Shown here in pieces: positions 7,594-37,459 of a stretch of DNA of 64,000 nucleotides. The notes below the pieces were generated by a model. It was not told the origin of the DNA. It searched no databases and saw nothing but the letters and a program-made list of their open reading frames with translations. The first letter of the stretch is position 1. Each line of letters begins with the position of its first letter. The stretch spans positions 32,001 to 96,000 of the forward strand of contig JBHLPH010000001.1 in the NCBI GenBank assembly GCA_048939625.1, in the 5' to 3' direction. A program made the translations under genes and the position numbers. The stretch is from Promethearchaeota archaeon. Lineage in GTDB: Archaea; Asgardarchaeota; Hermodarchaeia; Hermodarchaeales; Hermodarchaeaceae.

Positions 7594-8258
7594 TCGTTCA
7601 TTCCCTCCGAAGGTGAATCATTTTCAGTTGGTTCATCTTGGAACCAAGGCGATGCGATACGCCGATTCGACCATAAAAACCATAATAGAACGCCGAAGAC
7701 GATGAGTATGAGAAAACTACCAATAAATATTACAAAGATGAATATCAGATATGAAAACCCTATGAGAAAAATAAATAGAAATGAGCAGGCGTTGGCAATT
7801 ACAACCCCAGCAAGAAGCATGATTGTTGAAAATTGCACTCCAGTGTATTGAATGGTTATTCTGTTGTTAAATACAAACCACCTCCAACCTTGGTGCCAAA
7901 TAAAGAATTCCAAGAGAATGGGAACCATAAAGAATCCAAGAAAAACACCTACAGGATTCCAAAATAGATTCACAGCTTGTTGGAGGATATCAAAGTAATA
8001 TGGCATTGGGAGCACCCAGATTAAAGCCCCGTAGATAACCAAGGCGACACCGAACGAAAGAGGTGTGCTTAGGATTTGTACAAGCCCCATCCATCCGACA
8101 AGTGGCATGAACTGCTGCCTAACACCTTGTCGATACAAAATGACCGTCCAGGCGATTGATTCGAGGAAGGCACTCCATGCCCAACTAGCCAATAGGCTGG
8201 TAAAGAAGATTAAACCAGGTGGGAAACTATACCCGAAATTCAGCATTGCAGTCAGCAA
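7590..8258 (-). CDS. Integral membrane protein
   Basis: About 5 TM segments; 4-bp overlap with the downstream gene. Confidence 0.75.
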   Translation of the reverse strand: MLTAMLNFGYSFPPGLIFFTSLLASWAWSAFLESIAWTVILYRQGVRQQFMPLVGWMGLVQILSTPLSFGVALVIYGALIWVLPMPYYFDILQQAVNLFWNPVGVFLGFFMVPILLEFFIWHQGWRWFVFNNRITIQYTGVQFSTIMLLAGVVIANACSFLFIFLIGFSYLIFIFVIFIGSFLILIVFGVLLWFLWSNRRIASPWFQDEPTENDSPSEGMNE

Positions 8259-8359
8259 TCCCCTTATCCCTCAATAAGTGGGTTCGTACATGCTTTTAAT
8301 GGTAATTCCACATTAATTAGTTTATGATTGGGGAAATTCAGCAAGGTCATTGGACGTGA

Positions 8360-8812
8360 TTGGATTTGAGTTTGGATGAGTACAAAAAGAAACGTGATTT
8401 TTCAAAAACCCCGGAACCTGAACCAGAGGTAAAACCAGGTGATGGTCAATTATACGTGATTCAACGGCATCAAGCTCGAAACCTCCATTGGGATTTGCGA
8501 TTAGAGCGGCAAGGAGTTTTGGTGAGCTGGGCTGTACCAAAAGAACCACCTACCAAGAAAGGCATACGACGGTTGGCAATCCAAACCGAAGATCATCCGA
8601 TTGAGTACGGGTCTTTTGAAGGAATGATTCCCGAAGGCGAGTATGGAGCTGGACAAGTCGAACTGTGGGATACGGGGACCTTTGAAGTGGAGAAATGGGA
8701 AGAGAATGAGATTATTGTGTTAATTCAGGGAAAGCGATTAGGGGGACGATATTGCCTGATTCGTTTCAAAAAAGTCGAAGATGGATGGCTGTTCTTTCGG
8801 TGTGGGGAATAA
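8360..8812 (+). CDS. Stand-alone LigD 3'-phosphoesterase (PE) domain protein
   Basis: YVIQRHQARNLHWDLRLE, SWAVPK, LAIQTEDHPIEY, GEYGAGQVELWDTG. Confidence 0.95.
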   Translation: MDLSLDEYKKKRDFSKTPEPEPEVKPGDGQLYVIQRHQARNLHWDLRLERQGVLVSWAVPKEPPTKKGIRRLAIQTEDHPIEYGSFEGMIPEGEYGAGQVELWDTGTFEVEKWEENEIIVLIQGKRLGGRYCLIRFKKVEDGWLFFRCGE

Positions 8813-23485: not shown

Positions 23486-23659
23486 GCGTAAGCACCTTTT
23501 TTTCTGAAACTCTTGGGGAGATAGGTTAGCTAAAAGCTTACGTGTTGGAAACCTATTCGTTTTTCGAACGAAATATGGGACGCAAGCGAGATTTTTAAAC
23601 TGTTGTACCAATTAAGAAGTACTACAGCGGAGAACTATTTGGATATCGGAGGAACTGGT

Positions 23660-24046
23660 ATGCCCTCAACCCTGGATTCGTTGACAAACATCTTAGAGGA
23701 GTTAAATAAGACTGGTCGAGTCAAAGCAAGTATCGTCGCAACCGATGAAGGATTCGTTATTGCTTCAGCAGTTAGCCGGGGAGTCGATGAAAAGGTTGCA
23801 GCAGCCATGGGAAGCTTTGTTTTCAACACTGCAGACCGGGCAAGAGATGAACTAGAACTTGGCCTGATCCGCGATATCACTATTCGATGCGAAAAAGGGA
23901 CCTTGGTATGTAAATCCACCTTATTAGAGGATAACCGACCGGTAGTTCTAGCTGCACTAGTACCCCGAAAAACCCGATTCTTCATTCGGGAAGTTAACAA
24001 CGCCTTACGAAGAATACGCGAAGTTCTAAGAGAGTTAGAAATTTAA
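23660..24046 (+). CDS. Roadblock/LC7 domain protein
   Basis: ASIVATDEGFVIAS...EKVAAAM...ELELG.I..ITI....G; SD GGAGG before ATG 23660. Confidence 0.92.
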   Translation: MPSTLDSLTNILEELNKTGRVKASIVATDEGFVIASAVSRGVDEKVAAAMGSFVFNTADRARDELELGLIRDITIRCEKGTLVCKSTLLEDNRPVVLAALVPRKTRFFIREVNNALRRIREVLRELEI

Positions 24047-24084: not shown

Positions 24085-24822
24085 TTGTTTCTGGATAAAT
24101 TAAATGAGGAAGAGCGGATACTCACCTCCCTCAGGGATGGGTCACCACTTCGACAATTGTTGCTTGCAACAAAGGGCGAAACGGCGTTTCAGACAATCCA
24201 ACTCCCCGAAAACATTCAAAATCAAACTTTTTTACACACATTAGAATCAGCTCAGCTTCTTCACAAAGATGCAAATAGCTGGACCTTTCCAGGATATGCC
24301 AAGGTTCAAGTTGCCATTCGCGCTCTCCAGCTAGGAGAACCGAATCGAACAGTACTTTCAGCCTTAACCTGGCAGGAGTTCGAAGAATTTGTCGCTCGCG
24401 TATTAACTTTTCATGAATTCCAAGTGTGCCATCGATTTCGATTCTCAGATACTCGTCGGTATGAGATAGATATCCTAGCAGGTCGACAGCCGGTATTATT
24501 TTGCATTGATTGTAAGCAGTATGGTGTCCGATTGAATAAAGCATCGAGTCTTCGCACAGCAGCAGATGAACAACTACACCGAACCCGAGCCCTGGCAAAT
24601 GCCTTCGCTGAGTTTCAAGTGAAAATTGGCTGTCTTGACTGGTCTAGCCCTGTTCTCATTCCAATGCTTGTTACAATGCTCATTGAAGATATCCAATTTC
24701 ACGAAAAGATCCCAATTGTTCCCGCTTCACTCTTGAACGCTTTTCTTCTCAAATACGAAGAGCGCCTAGATTCTTTATGCACAGTAGAACCAAGTTCTAG
24801 TCGACAACTCCGCCTTATCTAA
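24085..24822 (+). CDS. Mrr-like PD-(D/E)xK endonuclease
   Basis: LTWQEFEEFVARVL, EIDILA, IDCKQY; C-terminal RQLRLI. Confidence 0.85.
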   Translation: MFLDKLNEEERILTSLRDGSPLRQLLLATKGETAFQTIQLPENIQNQTFLHTLESAQLLHKDANSWTFPGYAKVQVAIRALQLGEPNRTVLSALTWQEFEEFVARVLTFHEFQVCHRFRFSDTRRYEIDILAGRQPVLFCIDCKQYGVRLNKASSLRTAADEQLHRTRALANAFAEFQVKIGCLDWSSPVLIPMLVTMLIEDIQFHEKIPIVPASLLNAFLLKYEERLDSLCTVEPSSSRQLRLI

Positions 24823-25171: not shown

Positions 25172-26935
25172 TTAACCGGTAAAATGCACACTTCCTGTCT
25201 CCTGAATTTCTCGGACCTGTGATTCAAGATGATCAAATGCGGTTGGTAAGTATTCACGAAACCATTGCCATTGCCCCAACTCAGTATTGAATTGACAGCG
25301 TTGTCGAACCTGATTCATGATGAAATCTTTCGCACCACTTCCATAGAATACAGCTGCATCGAAGTCAGTTTGTTCAAGAAAAAGACGATTGAGTTCTCTT
25401 TCTACTTTGAGTGCTAAGCCTATTGGTAAACCAAAAGCAACAATACAGCCTGGAGTTGGATGATGAAATATGGAGCCCCCGTATAGAGGAGCTTCGCGAC
25501 AGCCTGAGAGGAAATTGCGAACTACTTCTTCACTCCCTTCGAGTATGATGAAGAGCGTTTCATTCAGTCCAAGATGATACATTGACAAATCTGGGCGTTT
25601 AAATAACACCTCTTGTGTGATTAATGATTTGAGATGTCGCCGAACAACGTGGACTGATTGACCTAGAATTAAGGCGAGGTCTTCCGCTGTTGTATCAGGT
25701 TTGACCTGCGATAGGATTTGATATGCAAGAGGGTCTAAATCTGCAGGATCGACATTAGGTTCAGCGTACTTGTAAATATAGGGTTGGCTTAGGATCTCCC
25801 CATACCCTTCTCGAATTAGAACATCACGAAGATACCGTACCCAGGCTACCCATCTAAACCTTTCTGACACGGGGACATCTGCTTCGTGGGCGAGATAGCT
25901 TCGAAGGTTATAGCCATTGAAAACGCCACTTAAGGGGTAGAAACGGTAACGGAGAAGATGACCTAACCCTACCAATTCTTGTAACCATTCTTGCAGTCGT
26001 CGAAGGCGTAATCGGGGGAGGGTGTAACTGAGAAGAAAGGGAGCACCACTTCCTCCGAATCTGTGAATTTTCCGGAGGTAGGGACATTGTTCAAAATATC
26101 GTGATACCCTACTTCCAGGGGCAGGATAAGCAAGGACTGCAATATGGTTTAGTCGTATTCGTGGATAGTTTATGCGGAAGTATCGGGAGAAAAGGAGTTT
26201 TTCACGAAAACTGGCCAGGTAGTTGCTTAAGCTTCCTAGAGAATATGATGAAATTTGTTGGAGCTGTCGAAGAGTCGATGTGGGATTTTCGATCATCAAA
26301 TGAAGAACGCGTAATTCTTGTTCGTTCAAGGGGGAGGCATAATTGAGCATAAATGTCTCCAGTAACTCAACATATTCTCGTGAGGTTAGAGGAGTGATCG
26401 CAGGTTCGAGTTCATCGAAATGAGGAAGGATTCGTTTGAGAAATGTTCCTTGGGTTACTCGGTTGAATAGGGGGAAAGAGTACGGTGCATTGTAGATTGT
26501 GTCGCCAAAAAACTGGCGTGGGGAAACTACTTGCCATAATTTCATGAGTTGGCTGAGATTAGGTTGAGCGGTGTGATGATAGGCACATAGGATGCCTAAA
26601 TCCCCACTTTCGGGAACACCCTTTACTACAGAGGGAATCAAGGTTGTGTACATTTCTCGGTAGAGGACTGTTTTAAGAAGGAGAGGACGAGTCAGGAGTT
26701 GAGAAGCGATACGGAATTTTCCCGCTCCGTATGAACCACAGAATCGTGGGCTTGTAAGAGTGTCATCGTCATAAAACTGAATTCGCGTAGGTAGGAGTGG
26801 TGAACGGTCTGTCAACTCAGTGATTTCTCGCTGAATGGTTTTCAATTGCTTCGTGATTTCCTGCCGATGGTGCCGACGTTGATTCGTGGTGAGTTTTTCT
26901 TTTGCAGTATGTTGTGTACGTGCCGTAGTCGCCAA
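25172..26935 (-). CDS. Large tandem Lrp-like wHTH regulator with N-terminal extension
   Basis: wHTH1 LNEQELRVLHLMIENPTSTLRQLQQ..; wHTH2 LDPLAYQILSQV..TAEDLALILGQSVHVVRRHLKSL; each followed by an alpha/beta domain. Confidence 0.72.
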   Translation of the reverse strand: MATTARTQHTAKEKLTTNQRRHHRQEITKQLKTIQREITELTDRSPLLPTRIQFYDDDTLTSPRFCGSYGAGKFRIASQLLTRPLLLKTVLYREMYTTLIPSVVKGVPESGDLGILCAYHHTAQPNLSQLMKLWQVVSPRQFFGDTIYNAPYSFPLFNRVTQGTFLKRILPHFDELEPAITPLTSREYVELLETFMLNYASPLNEQELRVLHLMIENPTSTLRQLQQISSYSLGSLSNYLASFREKLLFSRYFRINYPRIRLNHIAVLAYPAPGSRVSRYFEQCPYLRKIHRFGGSGAPFLLSYTLPRLRLRRLQEWLQELVGLGHLLRYRFYPLSGVFNGYNLRSYLAHEADVPVSERFRWVAWVRYLRDVLIREGYGEILSQPYIYKYAEPNVDPADLDPLAYQILSQVKPDTTAEDLALILGQSVHVVRRHLKSLITQEVLFKRPDLSMYHLGLNETLFIILEGSEEVVRNFLSGCREAPLYGGSIFHHPTPGCIVAFGLPIGLALKVERELNRLFLEQTDFDAAVFYGSGAKDFIMNQVRQRCQFNTELGQWQWFREYLPTAFDHLESQVREIQETGSVHFTG

Positions 26936-27225: not shown

Positions 27226-28164
27226 CTATTTTGGAGTACGCCGAGTGAGGGAATGGACTTCGCAGGTTCGGTTTTTGCATTCTGTGCATTCAGAGCTTTG
27301 GTGAACCCAATATTGGTCAAAGCGTTGGATGAATTGTGTGACGAATTCGAGGTTATTGGTCCAGGTGGCTTGCTCGCCGATCCCGGATAGCCCCTTGGCT
27401 GTGAAGTTTGCACTCCCTTCTAGAACCTCTGAATCGTCAATAATGACAGATTTGATGTGCATTTGTGCACAGACAAGAATTTCAATCGATGGAGCTTCTT
27501 GAAGAAGTTTCTCGACGGCTTCTTGGAAGTGCTTGGATGCAGCCCCAAATGCTTCTGGTTCACGAATGATGATTCGAATTTGAACACCTTGGTTAGCTTT
27601 TGTGATTAAGCGGTCGAGGAGGTTTACGTCACAGGATTCCGTTCCAACAGTCACTGTTTTGACATCTGTAAAGTTTTGAACCATGATCCGAATACTTTGA
27701 ATTGCCCGATCTAACATCTCCACTAGGGTGAAGGCAATTGAGATCCCATTAAGGAGTTGATGCTGCATAACTTCTGAACCAGTAGAGGAGGGAAGCGAAG
27801 TTTTTTCATCAGTTAATTCGATTTCTTCGACAGTGTCTGTTTCTGGAGATTCAACTGCTTTTTCAACAGCAGATGCAGCTGGAAGGAGATTTTCGTCGTC
27901 TGGAAAAAAACTGTCAAGGGAGTCAACCATGTGTAATGGGAGGGGTTCTTCACGCCTTAGCGCTTTGGTTATTTCAACGAGACTTCGGGCCCTCTGATAT
28001 GCAAGTTTGGACGCTGAACCTGTAGAATGTTTAGCAAGTTCATTAAACGCTTCGGCAGCCTTTAGAGCAGCGTTGGAGGCTCGTTGAAAATCGCCTTGAC
28101 TCATGAACTTGCGGATCAATTGGAGTGCTTCTTTTGCAACGCGTCCAAGTCGGGCCGTGCTCAT
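27226..28164 (-). CDS. MIT-domain / phospholipase D-family (single HKD) fusion protein
   Basis: N-terminal three-helix MIT-like segment; acidic linker; HIKSVIID..GSANFT motif; C-terminal CxxCxxxxC. Confidence 0.85.
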   Translation of the reverse strand: MSTARLGRVAKEALQLIRKFMSQGDFQRASNAALKAAEAFNELAKHSTGSASKLAYQRARSLVEITKALRREEPLPLHMVDSLDSFFPDDENLLPAASAVEKAVESPETDTVEEIELTDEKTSLPSSTGSEVMQHQLLNGISIAFTLVEMLDRAIQSIRIMVQNFTDVKTVTVGTESCDVNLLDRLITKANQGVQIRIIIREPEAFGAASKHFQEAVEKLLQEAPSIEILVCAQMHIKSVIIDDSEVLEGSANFTAKGLSGIGEQATWTNNLEFVTQFIQRFDQYWVHQSSECTECKNRTCEVHSLTRRTPK

Positions 28165-28436: not shown

Positions 28437-28937
28437 TCACTCTAAAAATAAGAGAAGAACAACAGCTCCAAATCCCAGTCCAAATAGTAGACTGCCAAGT
28501 GTTGTGTAGGACTTCAATTCGAAGAGTGCAGGAAGGACAAGGAACGGGAGCGGGATGATGATGGGAACAAGAAGAAGGGTCCAAGCATAGATAAAAGGGC
28601 GAAGAGAATAATTGATGAGAAGAAAGGTAACAGTGAAGACACTGAGTAGACATATACTGGAATTGAACCGGTGATTGCCCTGCTTAGAGGAAGATTGGGC
28701 TAAATCAGTGAGAAGGAGTCTAGAGAGTTGTGGATCGAAATCTGAAATGGGTTGGTCCGTTGGGATTTTTTGGCGTGACTGGGATGGATTTTCAATTATT
28801 AGAAAGGATTGATTTTGTAGGGTTTTGGATTTGTGGTGGCTTCGATATTTTCGATAGATTCGCAGAGTGATGATAATCTCAAGAAAAAAGATAAACAGAA
28901 TCACCATTGTGAGTAGCGAGGAGCAGTTAAGGTTCAC
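28437..28937 (-). CDS. Small membrane protein
   Basis: About 4 TMs; GTG 28937 after SD AGGTGA, overlapping the M28 gene stop. Confidence 0.65.
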   Translation of the reverse strand: MNLNCSSLLTMVILFIFFLEIIITLRIYRKYRSHHKSKTLQNQSFLIIENPSQSRQKIPTDQPISDFDPQLSRLLLTDLAQSSSKQGNHRFNSSICLLSVFTVTFLLINYSLRPFIYAWTLLLVPIIIPLPFLVLPALFELKSYTTLGSLLFGLGFGAVVLLLFLE

Positions 28938-31900
28938 TGTGATCACCTGCTTCCTTCTGTGTGAAAGTTGATTCTGAGAGTATTTTGAATAGCGGTTGAA
29001 TGAGTTCTCTGTTATTACCTTGTAATAGGATATGAAGTTCTTGTCCTTTCTTTTCCCAGGCAAGGACTACGCGGTCATTGGAATAGCGGTTCTTGCCACT
29101 CTTAGTTAATTCTAACTTCTGGATAACCTGCGCTAGTTCGTGCTTTATTTGAGGAGTAAGGCGGAATTGGTGTTCGGCATCATCTTTACTTGTTCCCCAA
29201 TGAATTTGCATTCCCTGATCTCCCGGGAGAACGAACCGGGGAGATTGAGAGGTATTAGCCTGGTTTTGGTGCTGAGAACGTTTTCCATTTCTTAACCAGC
29301 AAATCCCAATAATACAGAGTGCGATTAGAAATGCAGGAGGTAGCAGAGTGAGAATGGTGTTCACTGTGGAATAGCCAACATAAATTGGACTTTCAACAGC
29401 AAGGATTCGTTGGTCACTCGAGTACAGAGCGAGGGATAATGAACGAATGCCGGTATCCATGATTGCCGTGGGGACATATTGGAGTTGGAGGATGATTGAT
29501 CGGGTCGTGTTACTTTGGACGATGACTTGGGTGAATCCCAAGAAATTCGAATCTGCCATAATGTCAAAGATACGGGTTTGGGTTCCTAAGTTGGTGAGAT
29601 TCACCATGACTGAGAAAAGTTGATTCTGCAGGGTAGATTCGGGCTTTTCAAGAACTGTAAGGATGAAGGCAGGTTCAACAATGAGGGGAACGTGGTCGGC
29701 CAGTAAGAGTAGTGAGGAAGTTGAAATCTGGAGAGAGAGGTTATAAGTGCGTGGTGTGCAGCTTGGCTGTATTTCAAGTGTAATATGAAAGACGTTTTCA
29801 CCTGGAATGAGTAAGAGATTGGGTATAGATGTGAATCCAACCTCTTCAGCACTGAGACTGAGGTTTACGTATACTGTGGACATCCAAGAGGAGTTAATTT
29901 TACAAAAAATTGTGAGAAGTTCACCCTGTGGGATAGATGGAAGATATTCGAGGTGTGCTGAGCATAATGCGCGGGGAACAAAGAGAAACCAACCTTCTAG
30001 CTCCAATGCGGAGTGTGCGTGAATCAAGTAGGGCAGTGGGACTTTTAAAAAGAGTGAGACAGACGCAACCCCTGAACCATTTGTGATAACCTGGAATTCC
30101 ATTGAGGTCCCTTGGACTGTCAGGTTGAGGTGGACTAGTTGATCTGTAAGACCCGTCCAATTGGTGAAATCGCCAACGAATATATAGAGTGTTAGAGTCC
30201 TTCCTACGACTGGTTCTTGTTGGTCGAGTCCTAGTCCGATTCCCATCATTTTATGTTCAATAAGCCAGGCTAGTCCGTTTTCGGCAATTGTCTGTACAGT
30301 TGGGGTGTTTGGTAAATTGGGCCCTAAGAAAAGAACCGGAATCGATGTTAATGCCGGAGGAAAATAAGCTAGCGATGACCAGATTGTATTCCCTACTAAG
30401 ACGAGACTTGAGTTGTGGACTGAAACTGCGTGAACAGTTGAGCAATTTCGGAATAACTGGGCAGCTGCACCATTAAGGAGTGAAGAACTCTGTATGACCG
30501 GGTGAAATACTTTGAGCCCATTCACTGTTAGCAGATTCGCACCAAGATCTGTAAAGGTGAGATGTGCAGAATGGTGTAAAAATAAAGCACCCCCCTTACC
30601 CAAAGCAAGGAGAGGAAGGGAATGTCGTGTTAAGTGTAGAATCATTGCATCATTAGTGAAGACTAAAGGATCAATGATTAGGGCTTGATATTTTCCCAGT
30701 CGTGGGTCTAAGTAATCAGTGATTGTAATGTTTGCGATTTCCTTGAAAACCGGAACCCAATCCGCTGATTTATTCGGAGGTGTGGGAGGCAGATCAAAGA
30801 CAAAATCGAAAACAAGACCAAGGATTAGTTGAGTCGTATTTATGAGGTTAATGAGCTTGCAGTGTGACACTCCATCATAGAGAGAATGTTTGTATGGATC
30901 CGGATATTGATTAGTTGATATAGTGATAGCAGGAATTCCATTGGTATGAAAGGTCCATTCGGAGATGCACCAACCAAAATCGTGGTGGAGGTCCTCAATG
31001 GTTTCAATTCGTGGAGTTTGCGTATCGACTAGTGGAATGTTCAGATTCACTGATGTTTCGAGAAGGCTTTGCTGAAGAGGGGAAACATAATCACCGGAAA
31101 AATAGTATAGGGCAAGGATGGTGGGCCAGACGAGCCCAGCATATGCAATTTCATCGATATTTAAGATAAATGCTGTTGATGGGTTGATGCCTAGCGTGAG
31201 AAGACCATGAGAGAGGAGTTGGTTTGAGCCCCATAAGGATTGGGTCCCGTTTCCTTCTTCACCCCCTAAAAATGCAAATAACACATTCCACTTATTGAAG
31301 GATCCAGGGCAGGCAACAAGGATATGTAAGGCTTCAAGTAGGGTTGCAATCCCAGCAGCATTATCATTAGCCCCATGAGCGATGGTGGTTGATAGACCTA
31401 GCAAGTCATACCGGGCAGAATCGAGGTGACAAGTGATTATTATTGTGGAGGCCGAGGTATTAATGCTCCAGGGAGTAACATAGAGATTCCGTGTCCAGAA
31501 ATTCTGGTAGATGAATGTAGTTCCTGTCCATGTGGCTTTAGGGATGCAAAACCAGTCACTAACGAATGAAGTTCCAATCGACATTAGATATGATGCAATA
31601 AAATCAATTGAAGCATTTGCATCCGGATGGAAGGGATGTCTACTATTATATCCAGCAAGGAAAGTGAGAAGACCCATTAGACGTGTCGAATTTACGCAAG
31701 TGGCCATTTCTCGTTGCCAGTAGGCTAGACTTGAACTATTGGTCAGATAAGCGACGGATGGAGGGGACAATACGGGTGGAGAAACAGAGCAGGAATTCAG
31801 AGAGGGCAGAGCCGCGACTTGTGACCAAGCATTAGGGGTTGTAAGAGACACAGAAAAACACGGTTCTGTGAAAGGTAGCATTGAGGTGATACTACTAAGC

Positions 31901-31944
31901 AGCAGACAAATGAATACCAGCGAAAGAACTGTGACTCGCCTCAT
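28927..31944 (-). CDS. Large membrane-anchored surface protein with M28 metallopeptidase domain and Ig-like repeats
   Basis: CHLDS, GANDNAAG, GGEEG, NIDEI, HSLYD Zn-ligand set; beta-rich C-half; TM near the C-terminus. Confidence 0.88.
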   Translation of the reverse strand: MRRVTVLSLVFICLLLSSITSMLPFTEPCFSVSLTTPNAWSQVAALPSLNSCSVSPPVLSPPSVAYLTNSSSLAYWQREMATCVNSTRLMGLLTFLAGYNSRHPFHPDANASIDFIASYLMSIGTSFVSDWFCIPKATWTGTTFIYQNFWTRNLYVTPWSINTSASTIIITCHLDSARYDLLGLSTTIAHGANDNAAGIATLLEALHILVACPGSFNKWNVLFAFLGGEEGNGTQSLWGSNQLLSHGLLTLGINPSTAFILNIDEIAYAGLVWPTILALYYFSGDYVSPLQQSLLETSVNLNIPLVDTQTPRIETIEDLHHDFGWCISEWTFHTNGIPAITISTNQYPDPYKHSLYDGVSHCKLINLINTTQLILGLVFDFVFDLPPTPPNKSADWVPVFKEIANITITDYLDPRLGKYQALIIDPLVFTNDAMILHLTRHSLPLLALGKGGALFLHHSAHLTFTDLGANLLTVNGLKVFHPVIQSSSLLNGAAAQLFRNCSTVHAVSVHNSSLVLVGNTIWSSLAYFPPALTSIPVLFLGPNLPNTPTVQTIAENGLAWLIEHKMMGIGLGLDQQEPVVGRTLTLYIFVGDFTNWTGLTDQLVHLNLTVQGTSMEFQVITNGSGVASVSLFLKVPLPYLIHAHSALELEGWFLFVPRALCSAHLEYLPSIPQGELLTIFCKINSSWMSTVYVNLSLSAEEVGFTSIPNLLLIPGENVFHITLEIQPSCTPRTYNLSLQISTSSLLLLADHVPLIVEPAFILTVLEKPESTLQNQLFSVMVNLTNLGTQTRIFDIMADSNFLGFTQVIVQSNTTRSIILQLQYVPTAIMDTGIRSLSLALYSSDQRILAVESPIYVGYSTVNTILTLLPPAFLIALCIIGICWLRNGKRSQHQNQANTSQSPRFVLPGDQGMQIHWGTSKDDAEHQFRLTPQIKHELAQVIQKLELTKSGKNRYSNDRVVLAWEKKGQELHILLQGNNRELIQPLFKILSESTFTQKEAGDHSEP

Positions 31945-32533: not shown

Positions 32534-35500
32534 TTAATCATCATCCAGTGAATCAGTGGAGCTCGTTTCACCGGGTTGATTAGTAAGAAATTGGAGTAAT
32601 TCATGAGATGACTCAAGTATGGTTTTCTGAGAAGGACGAATGCGGCTTAAGAAGTCATTAAGCCGCTTCTGCTGACGTATGAATAAGAAAGCACCTATTA
32701 TTACTCCGAATATCATTACGATGAGGGACCAAATGAGAAGGGAAGTATCAACGCCTCCGATACGGTTCAGGGGATTTCGAACTAATAAGGGGGTTGTCGC
32801 CTGACAAGGAACAAATCCACGTTGTCCTTCGAAGCGAACCGTGATAGTGTAGATTCCAGGTTGGGGTGTCATTATTGTTAGTTGACCGATGCCCATGGAA
32901 TCTGTTTTGATTATAAAAGTGTCGAGGAGGGTGGTATCTTGACTAAGTAATTGCACGGTTAGATTGGCTACAAGACCTAAAGAAAGAGTTTCGTTAGTAT
33001 AAGACAATTGAACTTCTATTTGGAGAGTTGGCTGCAAAAGAATATCTTCTATCTCTAGGGGGGTAACTGTGAGTTTGAGTGTTGGTAGTATAACTCCTTG
33101 TAATGTTATGAGTAATGTTGCCTGGCTTTCATGATAGATATCCGGAGCGTCCAGTTGCCCGAAGAGGACAATGATTAGATGCTCACCGGTGATTTCAGTA
33201 TACTGTGTTGTGAGTGTGATTTCACCATAACCGTTAGAGATGGTGACATGCTGTCGCAATACTCCATCCCAGTAAAGAGCGGCAGTGCCATTGGGAGTGA
33301 GAGACATACCTGTGGTGATAGTGAGTTCGATGAAGATAGTGTCGCCGGCATAGACAGATGTTGAGTTGCTTGAGACGGAAAGGGAGGTGGTATCCCGAAG
33401 GAGAACTTGGAGTGATGAGGATACCCAGGAGTCATGTGTACTGGTTTCAGTGATCATAAGGTGTAAGTCCCGGTATCCGAGAGAACCACCTGCGATCCAT
33501 TGGCAATTAGCTTCACCCCACATATCGGTTGAAGCTGTTACTAAGAGGACTTCACCTTCGTAGAGACCCACTAGTAGATTGGGTAGGAGAGATCCATTGA
33601 GAGCATCTGAGACCTTGATTTGAAAATTGGTTTGGTTGCCGATGAAAAATGTGGAGGAGGGTAATATGTTGATAGTACATGCAAGGGGACGACGACTAAC
33701 TTGAATCATTGTGGTTGTCTGAGAGGCATTATACATTTCGCACTCAGCAAATTTTACACTAATTTGCCATTGTCCTACTTTGTCAGGTGTCCAGGAGCCC
33801 AGTGCAAGACCGGTTTGATTTGTGGTTAAGCTGTCAGAATGATAGGGAATGGAATCACCTGGCCGAGTAAAGTTAAAAGTGACCCTAAAGCCTGTGAGCT
33901 TCGTGCCACTTTCATTATTGAGACTAATTTCTATGGCCACAGGATCAAACAGAACTGGAGTTTCTGGCAGGATATTCTCTACGAGTAATGTGGTATCAAA
34001 CACTATTACCATAATTTGAGTTGTCTTAGTGTGGAAATTACAGTAAGGTACACTGGCATTGACGTGGAGAATGTGGCTGGTAGGTTCAAGATTTTGTGTT
34101 GGAATGGATACGTGATACTGGCTCGAACCGGCATAGCTTGCAGTATAGGTTACTGATGTTGTTAATAATGTCAGTACAACTTCTCCATTTGCAATGGGGT
34201 ATTGGGGCAAACTCGCGCCTGCGAGTCCAACATTGATCGTGACATTGAGCGGAATGCTTCGGGGAACCAAGGTTCCAGGCACAAAGGTAGTATTGAGGGA
34301 AAGAACACCCCATCCTGTACAGAAACTTGATGTAATCGAATAAGCAGGAATTGAGCCGGGGGAAAAGGCGAGAAGTGTGAGGTTCTGAGGACCTAGGGCG
34401 TTTAGATTGACTGGAATGAGCTCTTGAAGCATGAATGAGCCAGGAGGATTAATCCCACAAGAACTGAGAAAGGTGGTGTTGAAGAGGAGGGTTTGGATTT
34501 GAATTTTTTCCGGCAGTTGTCCCCATCTTGTTTCGATTACTGTTGCTGATAGAGCGAAAGGGTCACCAAGAGCAACAGTGCCAAGAGGAGACGAGATTTG
34601 CGTGAGATGTAGGATTGGGCTAACATCCAGATAAGAGAGAAGATTCATGCGTTGAACTAGTTCGAGCCCTAAGCTGATCAGGTATGGGATCCATTTGCCT
34701 TTAGGAAGAAGTGGTTCTGTGACTAATCCTTCATAGGAAAAGGCGGCGAGAAGCCGGTTATGAATGATTGACCAATCAGGACCTTGGAAGGCATTAGGAT
34801 TGAGTCCCATTTCAACCAGGAAATACAAGATTTCGGTGGCATAATAGACGCTAATCAAAGATGCATTCCCGTGGATGTACTGCTTAGCGAACATCGCTAG
34901 TTTATCTCCATTGAGACCCGAAAGGGAAGGATTCAGATAGGCATAAGCGCGTAGCCCAAGCCAGGTTTCAGCGAGATACTCATCAGCAGCTCGCCATTGA
35001 GCAGGCAGAAAAATCGGATGGGCTAGGTCTTGGAAATATTGATGAGTTGCATTATCTTGTAAGCAGCTGGTTAGGTAGGCAAGTATTGCTGATGCATTAT
35101 TCAGGTCTGTGGGTAGTCCACCTAGCCCTTGATGGGCTAATAAATTCCAGCAGGTTGTATCGAAACGGAAAGTTAGATCACTTTCGTGACCAACATAGAG
35201 ATGATGAATTCCCAACATTCCTGTATATTCTGAAGCTGTTGTTTGGCAGGCTTCGATTTCTTGTCGAATATGAAAGGCTCGTGTTGTCCAAGGTTCATAA
35301 TTTAGCCCTAGTTTTGCCATCAATTGGCTATACCCATAGTGATAGAGCGGTCCGAAGGTACCCGTTTCCAAGACGATACGATCAGGCGTTGGACTATCCG
35401 TGTCGATTCCTATAGAAGATGGAAGTTGATGGGCTACAAAAGAGCTGCGACTTGTGGACCAACAATTATCCAGATAGCTCAGAAAGGCTGAAAGGTTCAA

Positions 35501-37459
35501 AAAGTTCAACCCGTCAACCTGCCATAAAATTAGGATTATATCAACGCTTGATAAAAAATCACCAAAAATAACCGGTTCAGTTGCCCCACCCCAGCCCGTT
35601 AAACAATGAGTTAGATATTCGAGTAGAGTAGGTTCAGTAGTGCCTAATCCGCCAGTCAAGGCTAGCGCTTGGGCACCGTACCAAGTTTCATCGGGTGAAT
35701 TGTGAAAATCATGAAGCAAATCACCCCGTCCCCATCCTCCGTTAGGAAATTGATTTGTTAGAATATAGGTGCGACTAGCACTCGAATTGTATATGGGTAA
35801 TTTACCAAGAATAGAAAGGATTTGGAGAGCACAAGAAGTGCCAAGTATCCACTCATCTGAGTCCATGGAATATTTTGTATCGAAGACACTGCTTCCTATT
35901 GGTTCCTCACAGTTAGCAAGGAAAAGAAGAAGCGCCGTTTGATTGATGGCATCTAGTGCTTCAAGTTGAACAAGAGCCTTGAGTGCATGCAGAGTGTCAA
36001 TCAGGCTTGCGCTGAAGCTACCACTCGCTGAGGAATAGAAGCCACCGTATTCAGAATCTAGGGGATTAAGCTCTTGACAGGCAACCACAAAGTCGAGTGC
36101 AGCCTGAACATCAATGGCACTAAGTTGGTCAAGAGCTGATAGGCTTTCTAGCGCAAAACTGGTCGCGGCTAGGGTGGTCTGTTGTGCGTCGATTTCAGTG
36201 AAGAAGCCTCCTGAAATAGCATCTTGACATGAAGCTAGATACGCGCTGATTTGGGTCTGGTTAAATTGGTCAAGGATATTCAAATCCTTAGCCATGAGAA
36301 CACCCATGGCTGTGGTCATGCAACGATCGTTGAGCTGTGAACTTGCTAAATCTTCAAAGAAACCGAGAAGAGGATTATAACAGGTATTTAGCCATGATGC
36401 AAAACTGGAGATGTTCACAGCTAAATCAAAGGATTCAACCAAGTTGGTCACATAATACGAGAAGCGAAGCGATGGCTCAAGCGGATACCCAAACCCACCA
36501 GCACCTTGGATCTTCCAGTATCCTTCGGTTACATTCGAGGGTAATTGCCAATTGGAAAGCGTGTTTCCGAGCCGTTGTTGAAGGGTTGGACGGATTAACC
36601 AGTGTATGAGATTTTCACAAAACTGCTTGCCATGAATATTCAGGTTTTCTACTTGATTGATTCCCCAATAGTAAATGAAGGGAGTATTAACGAGTTTGCG
36701 GAACCAAAGGAGCTGAACACCAGACCCATCAAAGTTTGTTCCTAAAATTTCCGCTTTATCAGGTAATGCTGTTTTACGATAGGCATCGTAATGGACTAGT
36801 TGTGAATAGAGCCCATACCGTCCACTGCTTAGTGGAATGTTATGGGGAAGAGAGAAAATCTGAGAGCTATTAAGGGGTGACCAAAGATATCGTTCAACAG
36901 AGGGAATGAAGTGGGTCACTGGATTAAAACCATAAAGGCGATCTAGCACTTCATGACCATATCCGAGAAGTAAAAGTGGTTGGGAATAATTACTAAGAAT
37001 TTCCGCTGCATTCTGGCTAACGCCGAATGATGCATCACTTGTCCCTACACTCGGTGTAACGATGATTAGATCATTTCCTGAGGTATAGGTTAGGTTATTA
37101 ATGTGCGAGATAGTGGTATTGAAGCCTAGGTTTTGAAAGAAAGTGACCCAAACCTCTACTGGTTCCTGATGGGATTCATTTACATAATCACCATAGATAA
37201 GCATGAGATTACCGAAAGTGAGGAGGGATTGTGCGTTCTCCGGTGCTGGTAGTTCTCTGAAGGGTATTGCTGAATAAGGAGAATATGAAGAAGAGGTTGT
37301 AAGGGGTTGTTGGTATGCTTGAATTTCGTTGGGAGGTGATAATGCCCCCAATCTAGTCTCTGCTTCTTCGAAGAGAGTTAGAGGGTGACCACTAAGAAGA
37401 GGAAGAAGAAAAAGACAAAGGAAAATAATATGACGCAAACAGTATTTGTAACGGGACAT
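32534..37459 (-). CDS. Giant surface protein with prenyltransferase/squalene-cyclase-type alpha/alpha-barrel repeats and Ig-like stalk
   Basis: Signal peptide; repeats CQDAISGGF, CQE..YGGF, NQFPNGGWG; T(N/D)xxG Ig-like repeats; C-terminal TM. Confidence 0.85.
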   Translation of the reverse strand: MSRYKYCLRHIIFLCLFLLPLLSGHPLTLFEEAETRLGALSPPNEIQAYQQPLTTSSSYSPYSAIPFRELPAPENAQSLLTFGNLMLIYGDYVNESHQEPVEVWVTFFQNLGFNTTISHINNLTYTSGNDLIIVTPSVGTSDASFGVSQNAAEILSNYSQPLLLLGYGHEVLDRLYGFNPVTHFIPSVERYLWSPLNSSQIFSLPHNIPLSSGRYGLYSQLVHYDAYRKTALPDKAEILGTNFDGSGVQLLWFRKLVNTPFIYYWGINQVENLNIHGKQFCENLIHWLIRPTLQQRLGNTLSNWQLPSNVTEGYWKIQGAGGFGYPLEPSLRFSYYVTNLVESFDLAVNISSFASWLNTCYNPLLGFFEDLASSQLNDRCMTTAMGVLMAKDLNILDQFNQTQISAYLASCQDAISGGFFTEIDAQQTTLAATSFALESLSALDQLSAIDVQAALDFVVACQELNPLDSEYGGFYSSASGSFSASLIDTLHALKALVQLEALDAINQTALLLFLANCEEPIGSSVFDTKYSMDSDEWILGTSCALQILSILGKLPIYNSSASRTYILTNQFPNGGWGRGDLLHDFHNSPDETWYGAQALALTGGLGTTEPTLLEYLTHCLTGWGGATEPVIFGDFLSSVDIILILWQVDGLNFLNLSAFLSYLDNCWSTSRSSFVAHQLPSSIGIDTDSPTPDRIVLETGTFGPLYHYGYSQLMAKLGLNYEPWTTRAFHIRQEIEACQTTASEYTGMLGIHHLYVGHESDLTFRFDTTCWNLLAHQGLGGLPTDLNNASAILAYLTSCLQDNATHQYFQDLAHPIFLPAQWRAADEYLAETWLGLRAYAYLNPSLSGLNGDKLAMFAKQYIHGNASLISVYYATEILYFLVEMGLNPNAFQGPDWSIIHNRLLAAFSYEGLVTEPLLPKGKWIPYLISLGLELVQRMNLLSYLDVSPILHLTQISSPLGTVALGDPFALSATVIETRWGQLPEKIQIQTLLFNTTFLSSCGINPPGSFMLQELIPVNLNALGPQNLTLLAFSPGSIPAYSITSSFCTGWGVLSLNTTFVPGTLVPRSIPLNVTINVGLAGASLPQYPIANGEVVLTLLTTSVTYTASYAGSSQYHVSIPTQNLEPTSHILHVNASVPYCNFHTKTTQIMVIVFDTTLLVENILPETPVLFDPVAIEISLNNESGTKLTGFRVTFNFTRPGDSIPYHSDSLTTNQTGLALGSWTPDKVGQWQISVKFAECEMYNASQTTTMIQVSRRPLACTINILPSSTFFIGNQTNFQIKVSDALNGSLLPNLLVGLYEGEVLLVTASTDMWGEANCQWIAGGSLGYRDLHLMITETSTHDSWVSSSLQVLLRDTTSLSVSSNSTSVYAGDTIFIELTITTGMSLTPNGTAALYWDGVLRQHVTISNGYGEITLTTQYTEITGEHLIIVLFGQLDAPDIYHESQATLLITLQGVILPTLKLTVTPLEIEDILLQPTLQIEVQLSYTNETLSLGLVANLTVQLLSQDTTLLDTFIIKTDSMGIGQLTIMTPQPGIYTITVRFEGQRGFVPCQATTPLLVRNPLNRIGGVDTSLLIWSLIVMIFGVIIGAFLFIRQQKRLNDFLSRIRPSQKTILESSHELLQFLTNQPGETSSTDSLDDD

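Follow-up and report, generated by a model that had tools for sequence, protein, structure and literature searches.

P0001 is an Asgard archaeal protein in which a divergent MIT-type domain is joined to a single PLD domain with an apparently intact HKD site. Its gene (27226..28164, minus strand) lies in a 64,000-nucleotide stretch of DNA from a Promethearchaeota archaeon, referred to here as the window. The open frame is found on the minus strand only and runs from ATG to TAA (stop codon 27226-27228, minus strand), encoding 312 amino acids that comprise a MIT-like domain, a linker, an HKD-PLD domain and a Cys tail. A MIT, linker and single-PLD protein with an intact HKD had been proposed at this place, with no strand named, and this is confirmed by the open reading frame, the Pfam PLDc_2 match, the catalytic motifs and the evidence on the N-domain. 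The preferred reading, to which we give roughly an even chance (about 50%), is that P0001 is a cytosolic single-HKD phosphodiesterase, most likely acting on nucleic acid, that is recruited to ESCRT-III by its divergent MIT domain. No description of an Asgard or archaeal MIT-PLD fusion was found in the literature searched, whose reach ended short of subscription journals and supplements; the check for reported Asgard MIT fusions that accompanied the original prediction thus brought up no archaeal MIT-PLD fusion in the searchable literature.

The start codon of P0001 is supported, since some 20 homologues in the family alignment share this Met as their first residue. The protein belongs to a set of 46 homologous clusters whose names, where given, are all Asgard, and its gene is single-copy, syntenic and found in 15 of the 18 genomes of its family. 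In the window and related loci, it is accompanied by conserved genes for a 587-aa multi-winged-helix protein, an Mrr-like nuclease and a Roadblock protein, with the Mrr_cat gene located 2.4 kb from the P0001 gene. The downstream 587-aa protein, usually conserved, gave no informative match. Neither the window nor five related loci place the P0001 gene beside ESCRT genes.

The MIT-like N-domain occupies residues 1-88 (27901..28164, minus strand). In the AF2 model (pLDDT 90, pTM 0.81), it forms a three-helix bundle with helices at residues 3-22, 26-45 and 49-70, followed by a conserved short fourth helix at residues 77-85 with the motif PLPxxLVDALDSF. Vps4 MIT has neither this strongly conserved fourth helix nor the AKHSxG loop seen here. 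Fold searches with both domains, which had been suggested at the outset, led from the N-domain to the Sulfolobus CdvC MIT domain (2w2u) and from the PLD domain to NucT and Nuc. For the N-domain, 2w2u ranked first across all of the PDB in Foldseek (TM 0.82-0.85, rmsd 1.8-2.0 Å, 73 columns) and was the best natural chain in the Foldseek-independent VIA search (Z 10.6, rmsd 2.0 Å, 73 of 74 residues), with Foldseek E-values of at least 0.07 and a Z of about 10 that fall inside the noise range quoted for helical bundles. The VIA matches listed also include the MIT domains of calpain-7, MITD1, VPS4A, SKD1, yeast Vps4, LIP5 and katanin.

Profile comparisons point in the same direction. When the family N-domain profile was aligned by hhalign to nine Asgard Vps4 MIT domains, the match reached a probability of 90% and an E-value of 1.7e-6 over 69 columns, and its score of 36.6 stood 11 standard deviations above 200 column shuffles (10.8 +/- 2.2, maximum 19.9), with 15.5 for the reversed profile. 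The likeness peaks in helices 2 and 3, the helices of the MIM1 groove, whose conserved surface includes A36, A37, F40 and R58. The same profile also finds the MIT domain in a bona fide Vps4 encoded within an ESCRT cluster of another Asgard family (E 2e-4). In the reciprocal direction, a Vps4-MIT profile searched against the whole 2.3-Mb genome has a sole match at E<=1, namely P0001 residues ~8-72 (E 0.054). Moreover, the nearest PLD relatives beyond the family share its Cys tail, and their N-termini match Pfam MIT itself, with E 1e-6 (29.2 bits) for P0071 and E 3e-4 for P0054. In the protein atlas, the language-model neighbours found for residues 1-92 all belong to MIT-type clusters, at scores of 0.76-0.79 that lie below the level counted as more than a lead.

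Pfam MIT (PF04212, cut-off 30 bits) itself gave no match at E<=10, either to the whole protein or to residues 1-92, and likewise missed the P0001 gene in relatives' genomes. Searches of the N-domain with Pfam and NCBIfam brought up no MIT, TPR or other credible family, and a search of PDB sequences with the N-domain profile (hmmsearch) returned no MIT chain and no meaningful match, with a 'petal death protein' in first place (E 0.14), followed by designed helical repeats. Because the curated Pfam model gives no match, the N-domain is filed as MIT-like or divergent rather than as a member of PF04212. The N-terminus is supported as a divergent MIT-type three-helix domain by profile-profile, fold, reciprocal genome-match and transitive evidence, and the original prediction of a MIT-type N-terminus holds in this sense (hhalign probability 90%, CdvC MIT as top natural fold match, reciprocal match). 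The N-terminal string on which that prediction was based is present at residues 6-58; its ungapped alignment to the CdvC MIT domain of Sulfolobus was not recovered at the sequence level. The structure-based alignment to CdvC MIT covers 73 columns at 18-20% identity, and the profile alignment to Asgard Vps4 MIT requires two small gaps.

The N-domain is followed by an acidic, variable, disordered linker rich in Pro, Ser and Thr (residues 89-132; 27769..27900, minus strand), which shows a pLDDT of 29-31 in the AF2 model (all values below 50) and is without conserved columns in the family alignment. An acidic linker of ~55 aa had been expected; its acidity is borne out, and its length is closer to 44 aa. 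It comes after the fourth helix at residues 77-85.

The C-terminal part is a single PLD-superfamily catalytic domain with one HKD site (residues 133-289; 27298..27768, minus strand). Pfam PLDc_2 spans residues 147-286 at full model length (1-132) with an E-value of 1.2e-18, and its 67.7 bits against a cut-off of 27 place the match far beyond chance. The model is confident here, with pLDDT mostly at or above 90 at residues 135-289. In VIA, NucT (Z 17.5) and Nuc (Z 17.1) align with an rmsd of 2.3 Å over 141-143 residues at 20-23% identity, and Zucchini scores Z ~15. True phospholipases also appear among the structural neighbours at Z ~16, with Z 16-17 for human PLD1, plant PLD-alpha and bacterial PLD. 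The NCBIfam NucT model matches at E 5e-4, far under its cut-off. TrmBL2, which ranked first in Foldseek for the full-length model, was rejected as an architecture match because P0001 is without a winged-helix domain; the N-terminal helices were spuriously overlaid (rmsd 18-26 Å over ~315 columns), and the match traces to the non-catalytic PLD-like C-domain of TrmB proteins.

The HxKxxxxD, GSAN and CxxCxxxxC motifs read from the sequence originally were all recovered. The catalytic HxKx4D motif is H236-I-K238-S-V-I-I-D243 (27436..27459, minus strand), in which H236 is nearly invariant and K238 invariant across 24 homologues, and the His is invariant across the wider clan. The GSAN motif, G250-S-A-N253 (27406..27417, minus strand), has G250, S251 and N253 invariant in the same 24 homologues; both motifs are followed by the conserved acidic E264. 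The C-terminal cluster C293-x2-C296-x4-C301-x2-H304 (27253..27288, minus strand) is conserved in the family and is also found in distant Asgard relatives and some bacterial single-HKD proteins. Cys232 (27469..27471, minus strand), four residues before the catalytic His, is invariant across the PLD-Cys clan (column C103 of A5), which suggests that it is the putative fourth ligand of a Cys4 metal site formed with the C-terminal cluster. Judging by this conservation, C232, C293, C296 and C301 probably bind a structural metal.

P0001 resembles Nuc (Salmonella, 1byr), NucT (Helicobacter, 6ehi) and Zucchini/MitoPLD in having one HKD per chain, a domain of ~150 aa, GSxN and a downstream acidic residue, with sequence likeness at the domain level only. 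Zucchini has a zinc-binding Cys/His element; the placement of the cysteines in P0001, in a C-terminal tail and at one position before the catalytic His, differs from that group. Nuc, NucT and Zucchini/MitoPLD are secreted, periplasmic or located in the mitochondrial membrane, and none carries a MIT domain. On the other side of the protein, the N-terminal three-helix bundle of ~70 aa followed by a flexible linker is shared with Vps4/CdvC, although in P0001 it is joined to a hydrolase rather than to an AAA+ ATPase. In the eukaryotic fusions calpain-7, AMSH, USP8 and ULK3, a MIT adaptor takes an enzyme to ESCRT-III tails (PMC9477494). The logic of P0001 parallels theirs, with different catalytic domains and no implied orthology. 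No archaeal MIT-enzyme fusion of this kind is described in the searchable papers.

The closest parallel in layout is human MITD1 (PDB 4a5x, 2ymb), which likewise has a MIT-type bundle at its N-terminus, a linker and, at the C-terminus, a PLD-fold domain. Its MIT domain aligns with the P0001 N-domain model at Z 9.7 and an rmsd of 2.3 Å over 71 residues, and the PLD-fold domains of both proteins are expected to dimerise. MITD1 binds membrane, and no catalysis is known for it. Unlike MITD1, P0001 has a canonical HKD PLDc_2 domain at its C-terminus. MIT_C has a non-canonical site and forms a separate PLD branch (PMC12065111). Pfam MIT_C (PF16565) gave no match in the P0001 PLD domain at E<=10 and exceeded its cut-off in none of the 301 Asgard genomes searched, and the MITD1 PLD-fold chain is not among the 50 best PLD-domain matches listed by Foldseek or VIA. 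Since the domain is PLDc_2 and not MIT_C, NucT and Nuc are closest, and MIT_C was found above cut-off in none of the 301 Asgard genomes, the MITD1-like architecture is most simply convergent. Thus, of the MITD1 architecture proposed originally, the layout stands and the kinship is not supported; the resemblance is one of architecture, probably of convergent origin.

Relatives of P0001 indicate how its parts have been re-used. A second paralogue in the same genome has a degenerate H-x-N site, and no direct resemblance was detected between the paralogous N-domains A2 and A7. In a sister genus, the same N-domain, including the fourth helix, is joined to a transglutaminase-like core (hhalign 98.6%, E 7e-16), a MIT-like and transglutaminase-like (papain-fold) combination that echoes the layout of calpain-7. 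On these sequence comparisons, the MIT-like N-domain is a portable module. The unrooted PLD tree does not discriminate between one ancient MIT fusion and two independent ones. Among distant MIT-PLD relatives, one adjoins PCNA, an RPA-like OB protein and Hjc, and another adjoins XPB and Bax1. The surroundings of one distant relative are small ORFs that resemble those of a virus or plasmid.

The genome encodes ESCRT-III, including a Vps2/24/46-like subunit with the tail motif LPEPxxKxSELEKEIxRLKEE, and the lineage has two ESCRT-III paralogues (L004:3690-4301 and L004:4306-4938). A MIT/Vps4 gene was not found in the window's own assembly, where the single-AAA candidates for Vps4 turned out to be PAN and a PRS2-type ATPase. 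Of 14 congeners, 13 encode a 387-aa Vps4, and in congeners its gene lies ~7.4 kb from ESCRT-III, on the side where contig C56 ends. This position, together with the presence in congeners and a genome completeness of 87.6%, makes an assembly gap the most likely explanation for its absence. A complex of P0001 with this genome's ESCRT-III C-terminus, proposed earlier as a check, was predicted from the N-domain and a 56-aa tail; it separated from the controls (ipSAE 0.53 versus 0.00 for the best control) and was graded as 'weak support'. Of the 80 solved complexes, 58 reach the pass mark, as do 2 of the 110 mismatched pairs; passes at or below 0.60 comprise 7 of the 80 solved complexes and both of the passing mismatches, and unless the pairing had been probable from the start, a pass this low is wrong more often than it is right. 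At least 43% of contacts agree between runs, and the partner pLDDT is at least 52. Because MIT-MIM complexes have already been solved, the pass may reflect likeness to them and not binding. The modelling lends at most weak support to binding of the ESCRT-III tail by the P0001 N-domain.

The single-HKD enzymes Nuc, NucT and Zucchini homodimerise, with one active site per dimer. By analogy, a P0001 homodimer would build one active site. Nucleic acid would be the most likely substrate. The four-Cys metal site, if it binds metal as its residues suggest, would clamp the C-terminal tail beside the catalytic strand. The proposed docking site of the MIT-like domain is the MIM-type tail at the C-terminus of ESCRT-III in its polymerised form, and docking there would concentrate P0001 at ESCRT-III assemblies, which could be division necks, vesicle necks or ESCRT-bound chromatin. 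Asgard ESCRT-III is reported to bind chromatin, and the foci of Asgard ESCRT-III and Vps4 come from co-expression in yeast or mammalian cells (bioRxiv 10.1101/2021.11.29.470303).

Other readings differ in which half of the protein they reinterpret. The N-domain could be of MIT descent and no longer serve ESCRT-III, binding instead another helical or proline-rich ligand, or its own fourth helix as a MIM-like plug that regulates PLD dimerisation or activity. Its strong divergence from Vps4 MIT with no Pfam MIT match, the conserved fourth helix and AKHSxG loop that Vps4 MIT lacks, and the lack of ESCRT synteny in the loci examined all fit this view, as do certain eukaryotic MIT domains with partners outside ESCRT, those of NRBF2 and katanin among them. 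We nevertheless regard it as doubtful, as the likeness to Vps4 MIT is best precisely in helices 2-3, the MIM1 groove, the tail complex earned 'weak support' with controls at zero, and the occurrence of the module on different enzymes fits a recruitment adaptor. More radically, P0001 could be a stand-alone DpdK/DrmC-type defence or mobile-element nuclease whose N-terminal bundle is a generic oligomerisation or sensor domain with a coincidental likeness to MIT. PADLOC matches to DpdK (E 1e-10) and DrmC (E 3e-10), an NCBIfam DpdK match (E 5e-10), the nearby Mrr_cat gene and the relative in the virus- or plasmid-like stretch speak for it. These scores are, however, far under the curated NCBIfam cut-offs (39.3 versus 100 for DpdK, 31.9 versus 133 for DrmC), and the PADLOC matches (DpdK, DrmC, Mko) are confined to the shared PLD core. 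Partner genes of the Dpd, DISARM or other systems are absent nearby, and the single-copy, syntenic occurrence in most family genomes is unlike a patchy defence island. As coincidence is also hard to square with the shuffle control and the reciprocal match, this reading is very improbable.

The substrate raises a separate question, for P0001 could be a lipid enzyme and not a nuclease: as a phospholipase or transphosphatidylase, it would remodel the membrane lipid at sites of ESCRT-III, comparable to MitoPLD acting on cardiolipin or MITD1 binding membranes. Many HKD enzymes act on lipid, and the phospholipases among the structural neighbours score near the nucleases. Additionally, the best PDB sequence match is named mitochondrial cardiolipin hydrolase (E 0.03), and JGI names homologues phosphatidylserine/cardiolipin synthase-like. 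This is set against a single HKD of ~155 aa with no second HKD, membrane-insertion or lipid-binding domain, and neither the sequence nor the model was noted to contain a TM segment or membrane-binding element. The two best structural matches are nucleases, as are those nearest at the family level (NucT, Nuc, DpdK and DrmC between them), and the neighbourhoods of the distant relatives are DNA-related. Archaeal ether lipids are not known to have been tried with an HKD enzyme. This reading seems quite unlikely.

Roughly twenty eukaryotic MIT proteins, including ATPases, proteases, kinases and MITD1, read the C-terminal tails of ESCRT-III in a code that organises abscission and endosomal sorting (PMC9477494). 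The archaeal ESCRT literature searchable here treats Vps4/CdvC as the sole MIT protein (PMC10936438, PMC7240154, PMC8970359). The present analysis, conducted in silico, suggests that enzymes besides Vps4 were already recruited to the ESCRT scission machinery in archaeal relatives of eukaryotes. A wider and on balance improbable conjecture is that Asgard archaea had already diversified the MIT-MIM code, with divergent MIT domains in one lineage bringing to ESCRT-III an intact HKD nuclease, the H-x-N paralogue, a transglutaminase-like enzyme and, elsewhere, a roadblock/longin-like protein, with the HKD enzyme clearing DNA or RNA trapped at the scission neck. The H-x-N paralogue could then resemble MITD1 in lacking catalysis, and the HKD enzyme would be an archaeal forerunner of eukaryotic accessory abscission factors.

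The MIT-like fusion proteins are small and soluble, which makes them tractable for binding and nuclease assays. If the fusions do not bind ESCRT-III, the family would still be an HKD enzyme conserved in Asgard archaea, whose portable adaptor of helices serves another ligand. If the preferred reading of ESCRT-III recruitment is right, binding would offer a testable lead on the role of Asgard ESCRT-III in division, vesicles or chromatin, and the adaptor logic of MIT-like fusions would be older than eukaryotes.

The gene for P0001, a 312-aa protein, occupies window positions 27226-28164, as originally predicted, and lies on the minus strand, the sole open strand there. Its start codon is backed by about 20 homologues with the same Met-Ser/Asn-Thr-x-Arg-Leu beginning. 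Because the gene has flanks of its own of about 270-290 bp and T-runs after the stop, it looks monocistronic. A word-indexed search returned 46 homologous clusters with identities of 49-82%, and those named by source all come from Asgard MAGs (Promethearchaeota, Hermodarchaeota or Thorarchaeota). HMMER, run exhaustively against 1.8 billion representatives, found the N-terminal part in no other family, the remaining matches being to the PLD domain. An AlphaFold2 model based on the family alignment contains helices at residues 3-23, 26-45, 49-70 and 77-85 (pLDDT >90 in the first three), a region of disorder spanning 89-132 (pLDDT ~30) and an alpha/beta domain at 135-289.

The helical N-domain (residues 1-88) is probably a divergent MIT homologue, with a probability of about 0.8. 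Folded alone, it reaches pLDDT 90 and pTM 0.81. Its top Foldseek match in the whole PDB is the MIT domain of Sulfolobus CdvC/Vps4, 2w2u (TM 0.82-0.85 by target, rmsd 1.8-2.0 A, 73 columns), and further MIT domains are dispersed in the list (2v6y, SKD1, spartin, yeast Vps4, MITD1, NRBF2, katanin), with E-values of at least 0.07 that are not significant on their own. VIA-align, independent of Foldseek, again placed 2w2u as the best natural chain among 48,161 representatives (Z 10.6), ahead of calpain-7 (10.2), MITD1 (9.7), VPS4A (9.5), SKD1 (9.4), yeast Vps4 (8.8) and then LIP5 and katanin MIT, in a range below ~13 that is common for helical bundles. Profile comparison by hhalign with nine Asgard MIT domains taken from genuine Vps4 genes gave Prob 90% and E 1.7e-6 over 69 columns, helices 2 and 3 matching best. 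The score was 36.6, against 10.8 +/- 2.2 (maximum 19.9) when the columns of the Vps4 alignment were shuffled 200 times and 15.5 with the reversed alignment; composition does not explain this match.

Searches in both directions point the same way. A search of 301 Asgard genomes with the N-domain profile found, outside the P0001 family, the MIT of a 384-aa protein (E 2e-4) with MIT, AAA and Vps4_C domains, whose gene adjoins ESCRT-II and two Snf7 genes. Reciprocally, the Vps4-MIT profile had one match at E<=1 in six frames of the 2.3-Mb genome, namely the P0001 ORF at residues ~8-72 (E 0.054). Protein-language-model neighbours of residues 1-92 are MIT-type clusters only, with scores that serve as leads. 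Outside the family, the closest PLD relatives have the Cys tail in common at 24-35% identity. Among them, the N-terminus of P0071, a PLDc_2 protein, matches Pfam MIT with E 1e-6 and 29.2 bits, slightly below the 30-bit cut-off, and that of P0054, a distant MIT and HKD-PLD relative, with E 3e-4. P0054 is encoded at ~8001-8771 of locus L079 (JGI 3300005099 contig) among many small ORFs; PCNA, an RPA-like OB protein and the Holliday-junction resolvase Hjc lie nearby, and the locus may be an archaeal virus or plasmid. Taken as a whole, these results support the predicted MIT identity of the N-terminus, but Pfam MIT does not match the P0001 N-domain even at E<=10, and searching PDB sequences with the family profile brought up no MIT chain. 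Because the domain falls outside the curated Pfam rule, it is termed MIT-like here.

In the catalytic part, Pfam PLDc_2 covers residues 147-286 (E 1.2e-18), and the intact HKD site of the original prediction is indeed present as H236-x-K238-x4-D243 and G250-S-A-N253, (near-)invariant among 24 homologues, with a likewise conserved acidic E264 farther downstream. The proposed CxxCxxxxC is also found, as a conserved tail C293-x2-C296-x4-C301(-x2-H304). With distant relatives included, C232 (four positions ahead of the catalytic His), C293 and C296 are invariant and C301 nearly so; the four cysteines probably form a Cys4 metal site joining the tail, modelled with low pLDDT, to the catalytic strand. 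Some bacterial single-HKD proteins have similar C-terminal Cys clusters, and this feature therefore predates the MIT-PLD fusion.

As to activity, NucT (Z 17.5) and Nuc (Z 17.1) rank first among the structural neighbours, both with rmsd 2.3 A over ~142 residues. Next, at Z 14-17, come eukaryotic PLD1, PLD3/4, FAM83, TrmBL2 and Zucchini; PLD3/4 are 5' exonucleases. Family-level matches are the nucleases DpdK, DrmC and NucT, each far below cut-off, and DNA-metabolism genes adjoin two distant MIT-PLD relatives (P0054, with the neighbours given above, and another next to XPB and Bax1). The domain would rather be a nuclease, a reading held with moderate confidence, while a lipid enzyme appears unlikely.

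The suggested kinship with human MITD1 was not borne out. The PLD-fold domain of MITD1 is MIT_C (PF16565), which forms a PLD branch of its own and has a particular motif (PMC12065111), whereas the P0001 PLD domain has no PF16565 match, and none of 301 Asgard genomes had a PF16565 match above the cut-off. The original prediction had taken a PLD domain grouping far from MITD1 as the mark of convergence and, as far as the tools used allow, the shared architecture is probably convergent.

A profile of the PLD domain with its Cys tail picked up clan members in 35 of the 301 Asgard genomes, including 17 of 18 from the window's own family, most of those with two copies. The second-copy family (~275 aa) carries names from Thor-, Hod- and Promethearchaeota MAGs, where it is widespread. 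Since its members have an invariant H-x-N (Lys->Asn) and GTAPLT replacing GSANFT, their site is non-canonical and possibly inactive. The copy in the window's genome lies outside the window, on contig C78 (12480-13289, plus strand, locus L081); its N-domain matches Asgard Vps4 MIT (Prob 93%, E 3.6e-7) and has no match to that of P0001. In an unrooted maximum-likelihood tree of PLD domains, the P0001 family forms one clade (support 98/97), and the H-x-N family is sister to two canonical-HKD relatives with Pfam-detectable MIT (95/89), with Asgard members lacking MIT interspersed. Because the tree is unrooted, it accommodates both one ancient MIT fusion followed by losses and two independent fusions.

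Recruitment of P0001 by ESCRT-III, as originally predicted, is plausible. On contig C56 of the same genome (locus L004), two adjacent Snf7-family genes stand beside a bPH/Vps23-core protein and a small winged-helix-like protein. The tails of the two Snf7-family proteins end in LP-x-P and then an amphipathic helix; this motif, conserved across Asgard lineages, is similar to a MIM1-like helix known from Asgard Vps2/24/46 (PMC7240154). With alignments of the N-domain and of a 56-aa ESCRT-III tail as input, the predicted complex gave ipSAE 0.53, 0.54 and 0.53 against 0.00 in three controls, a score classed as weak support; by the calibration of the method, most passes at <=0.60 are false unless the pairing was likely beforehand. 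The runs had at least 43% of contacts in common and partner pLDDT of at least 52; model memory is possible, since structures of MIT-MIM complexes have been solved. No ESCRT genes occur near the P0001 gene in the window locus or related syntenic loci. Because of this missing neighbourhood link and the low-scoring prediction, we infer binding by the N-domain with odds only slightly in its favour. The assembly contains no Vps4; the probable reason is that C56 ends ~3.7 kb from ESCRT-III, on the side where congeners have Vps4 at a distance of ~7.4 kb.

The P0001 locus is syntenic in relatives. The genes downstream encode a multi-winged-helix protein of 587 aa, a protein of 110 aa, and Mrr-like and Roadblock proteins. 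The 587-aa protein (25172-26935, minus strand) has at least two winged-helix segments (HTH_24/MarR_2) and no informative match in PDB or NCBIfam; it is conserved in most relatives and missing at the P0042 locus. The Roadblock/LC7 gene (23603-24046, plus strand; Pfam E 2e-8) and the Mrr_cat/NERD-like nuclease gene (24085-24822, plus strand) lie 2.4-3.6 kb downstream of P0001, an arrangement kept in relatives, and an alpha-SNAP-like gene (Pfam SNAP) occurs farther along the related locus L076. Upstream are an M28 peptidase and variable genes. Two very large proteins are encoded on this side, one of 1005 aa with the M28 domain (28927-31944, minus strand) and one of 1641 aa that has Ig-like domains and a prenyltransferase alpha-alpha toroid (32534-37459, minus strand), the genes between these and the MIT-PLD gene differing among relatives.

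MIT-like domains also occur on other partners. Genome G062, from another Asgard family, encodes a 222-aa protein (L041:1598-2266, minus strand) whose N-terminus matches Vps4 MIT (hhalign 89%, E 2e-6); its C-terminal region has weak MPN-like and longin-like Pfam matches and looks roadblock/longin-like by eye. In a sister genus, a 279-aa protein (L042:525-1364 and L043:1137-1970, both minus strand), its gene adjoined by a 9-repeat TPR gene, combines the N-domain, fourth helix included (hhalign to the P0001 profile 98.6%, E 7e-16), with a core that Pfam matches as transglutaminase-like (E 1e-5).

Full-text searches of openly accessible papers brought up no account of an MIT-PLD fusion, or of any MIT-enzyme fusion apart from Vps4, in archaea; P0071 appears as MIT (weak) plus PLDc_2 in one public precomputed annotation. 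P0001 adds to the known MIT-adaptor enzyme fusions an Asgard one whose Nuc-like HKD domain is intact. Since the same N-domain is found on a transglutaminase-like core, a combination that recalls the MIT-protease fusion calpain-7, it is a portable adaptor module, as eukaryotic MIT domains are.
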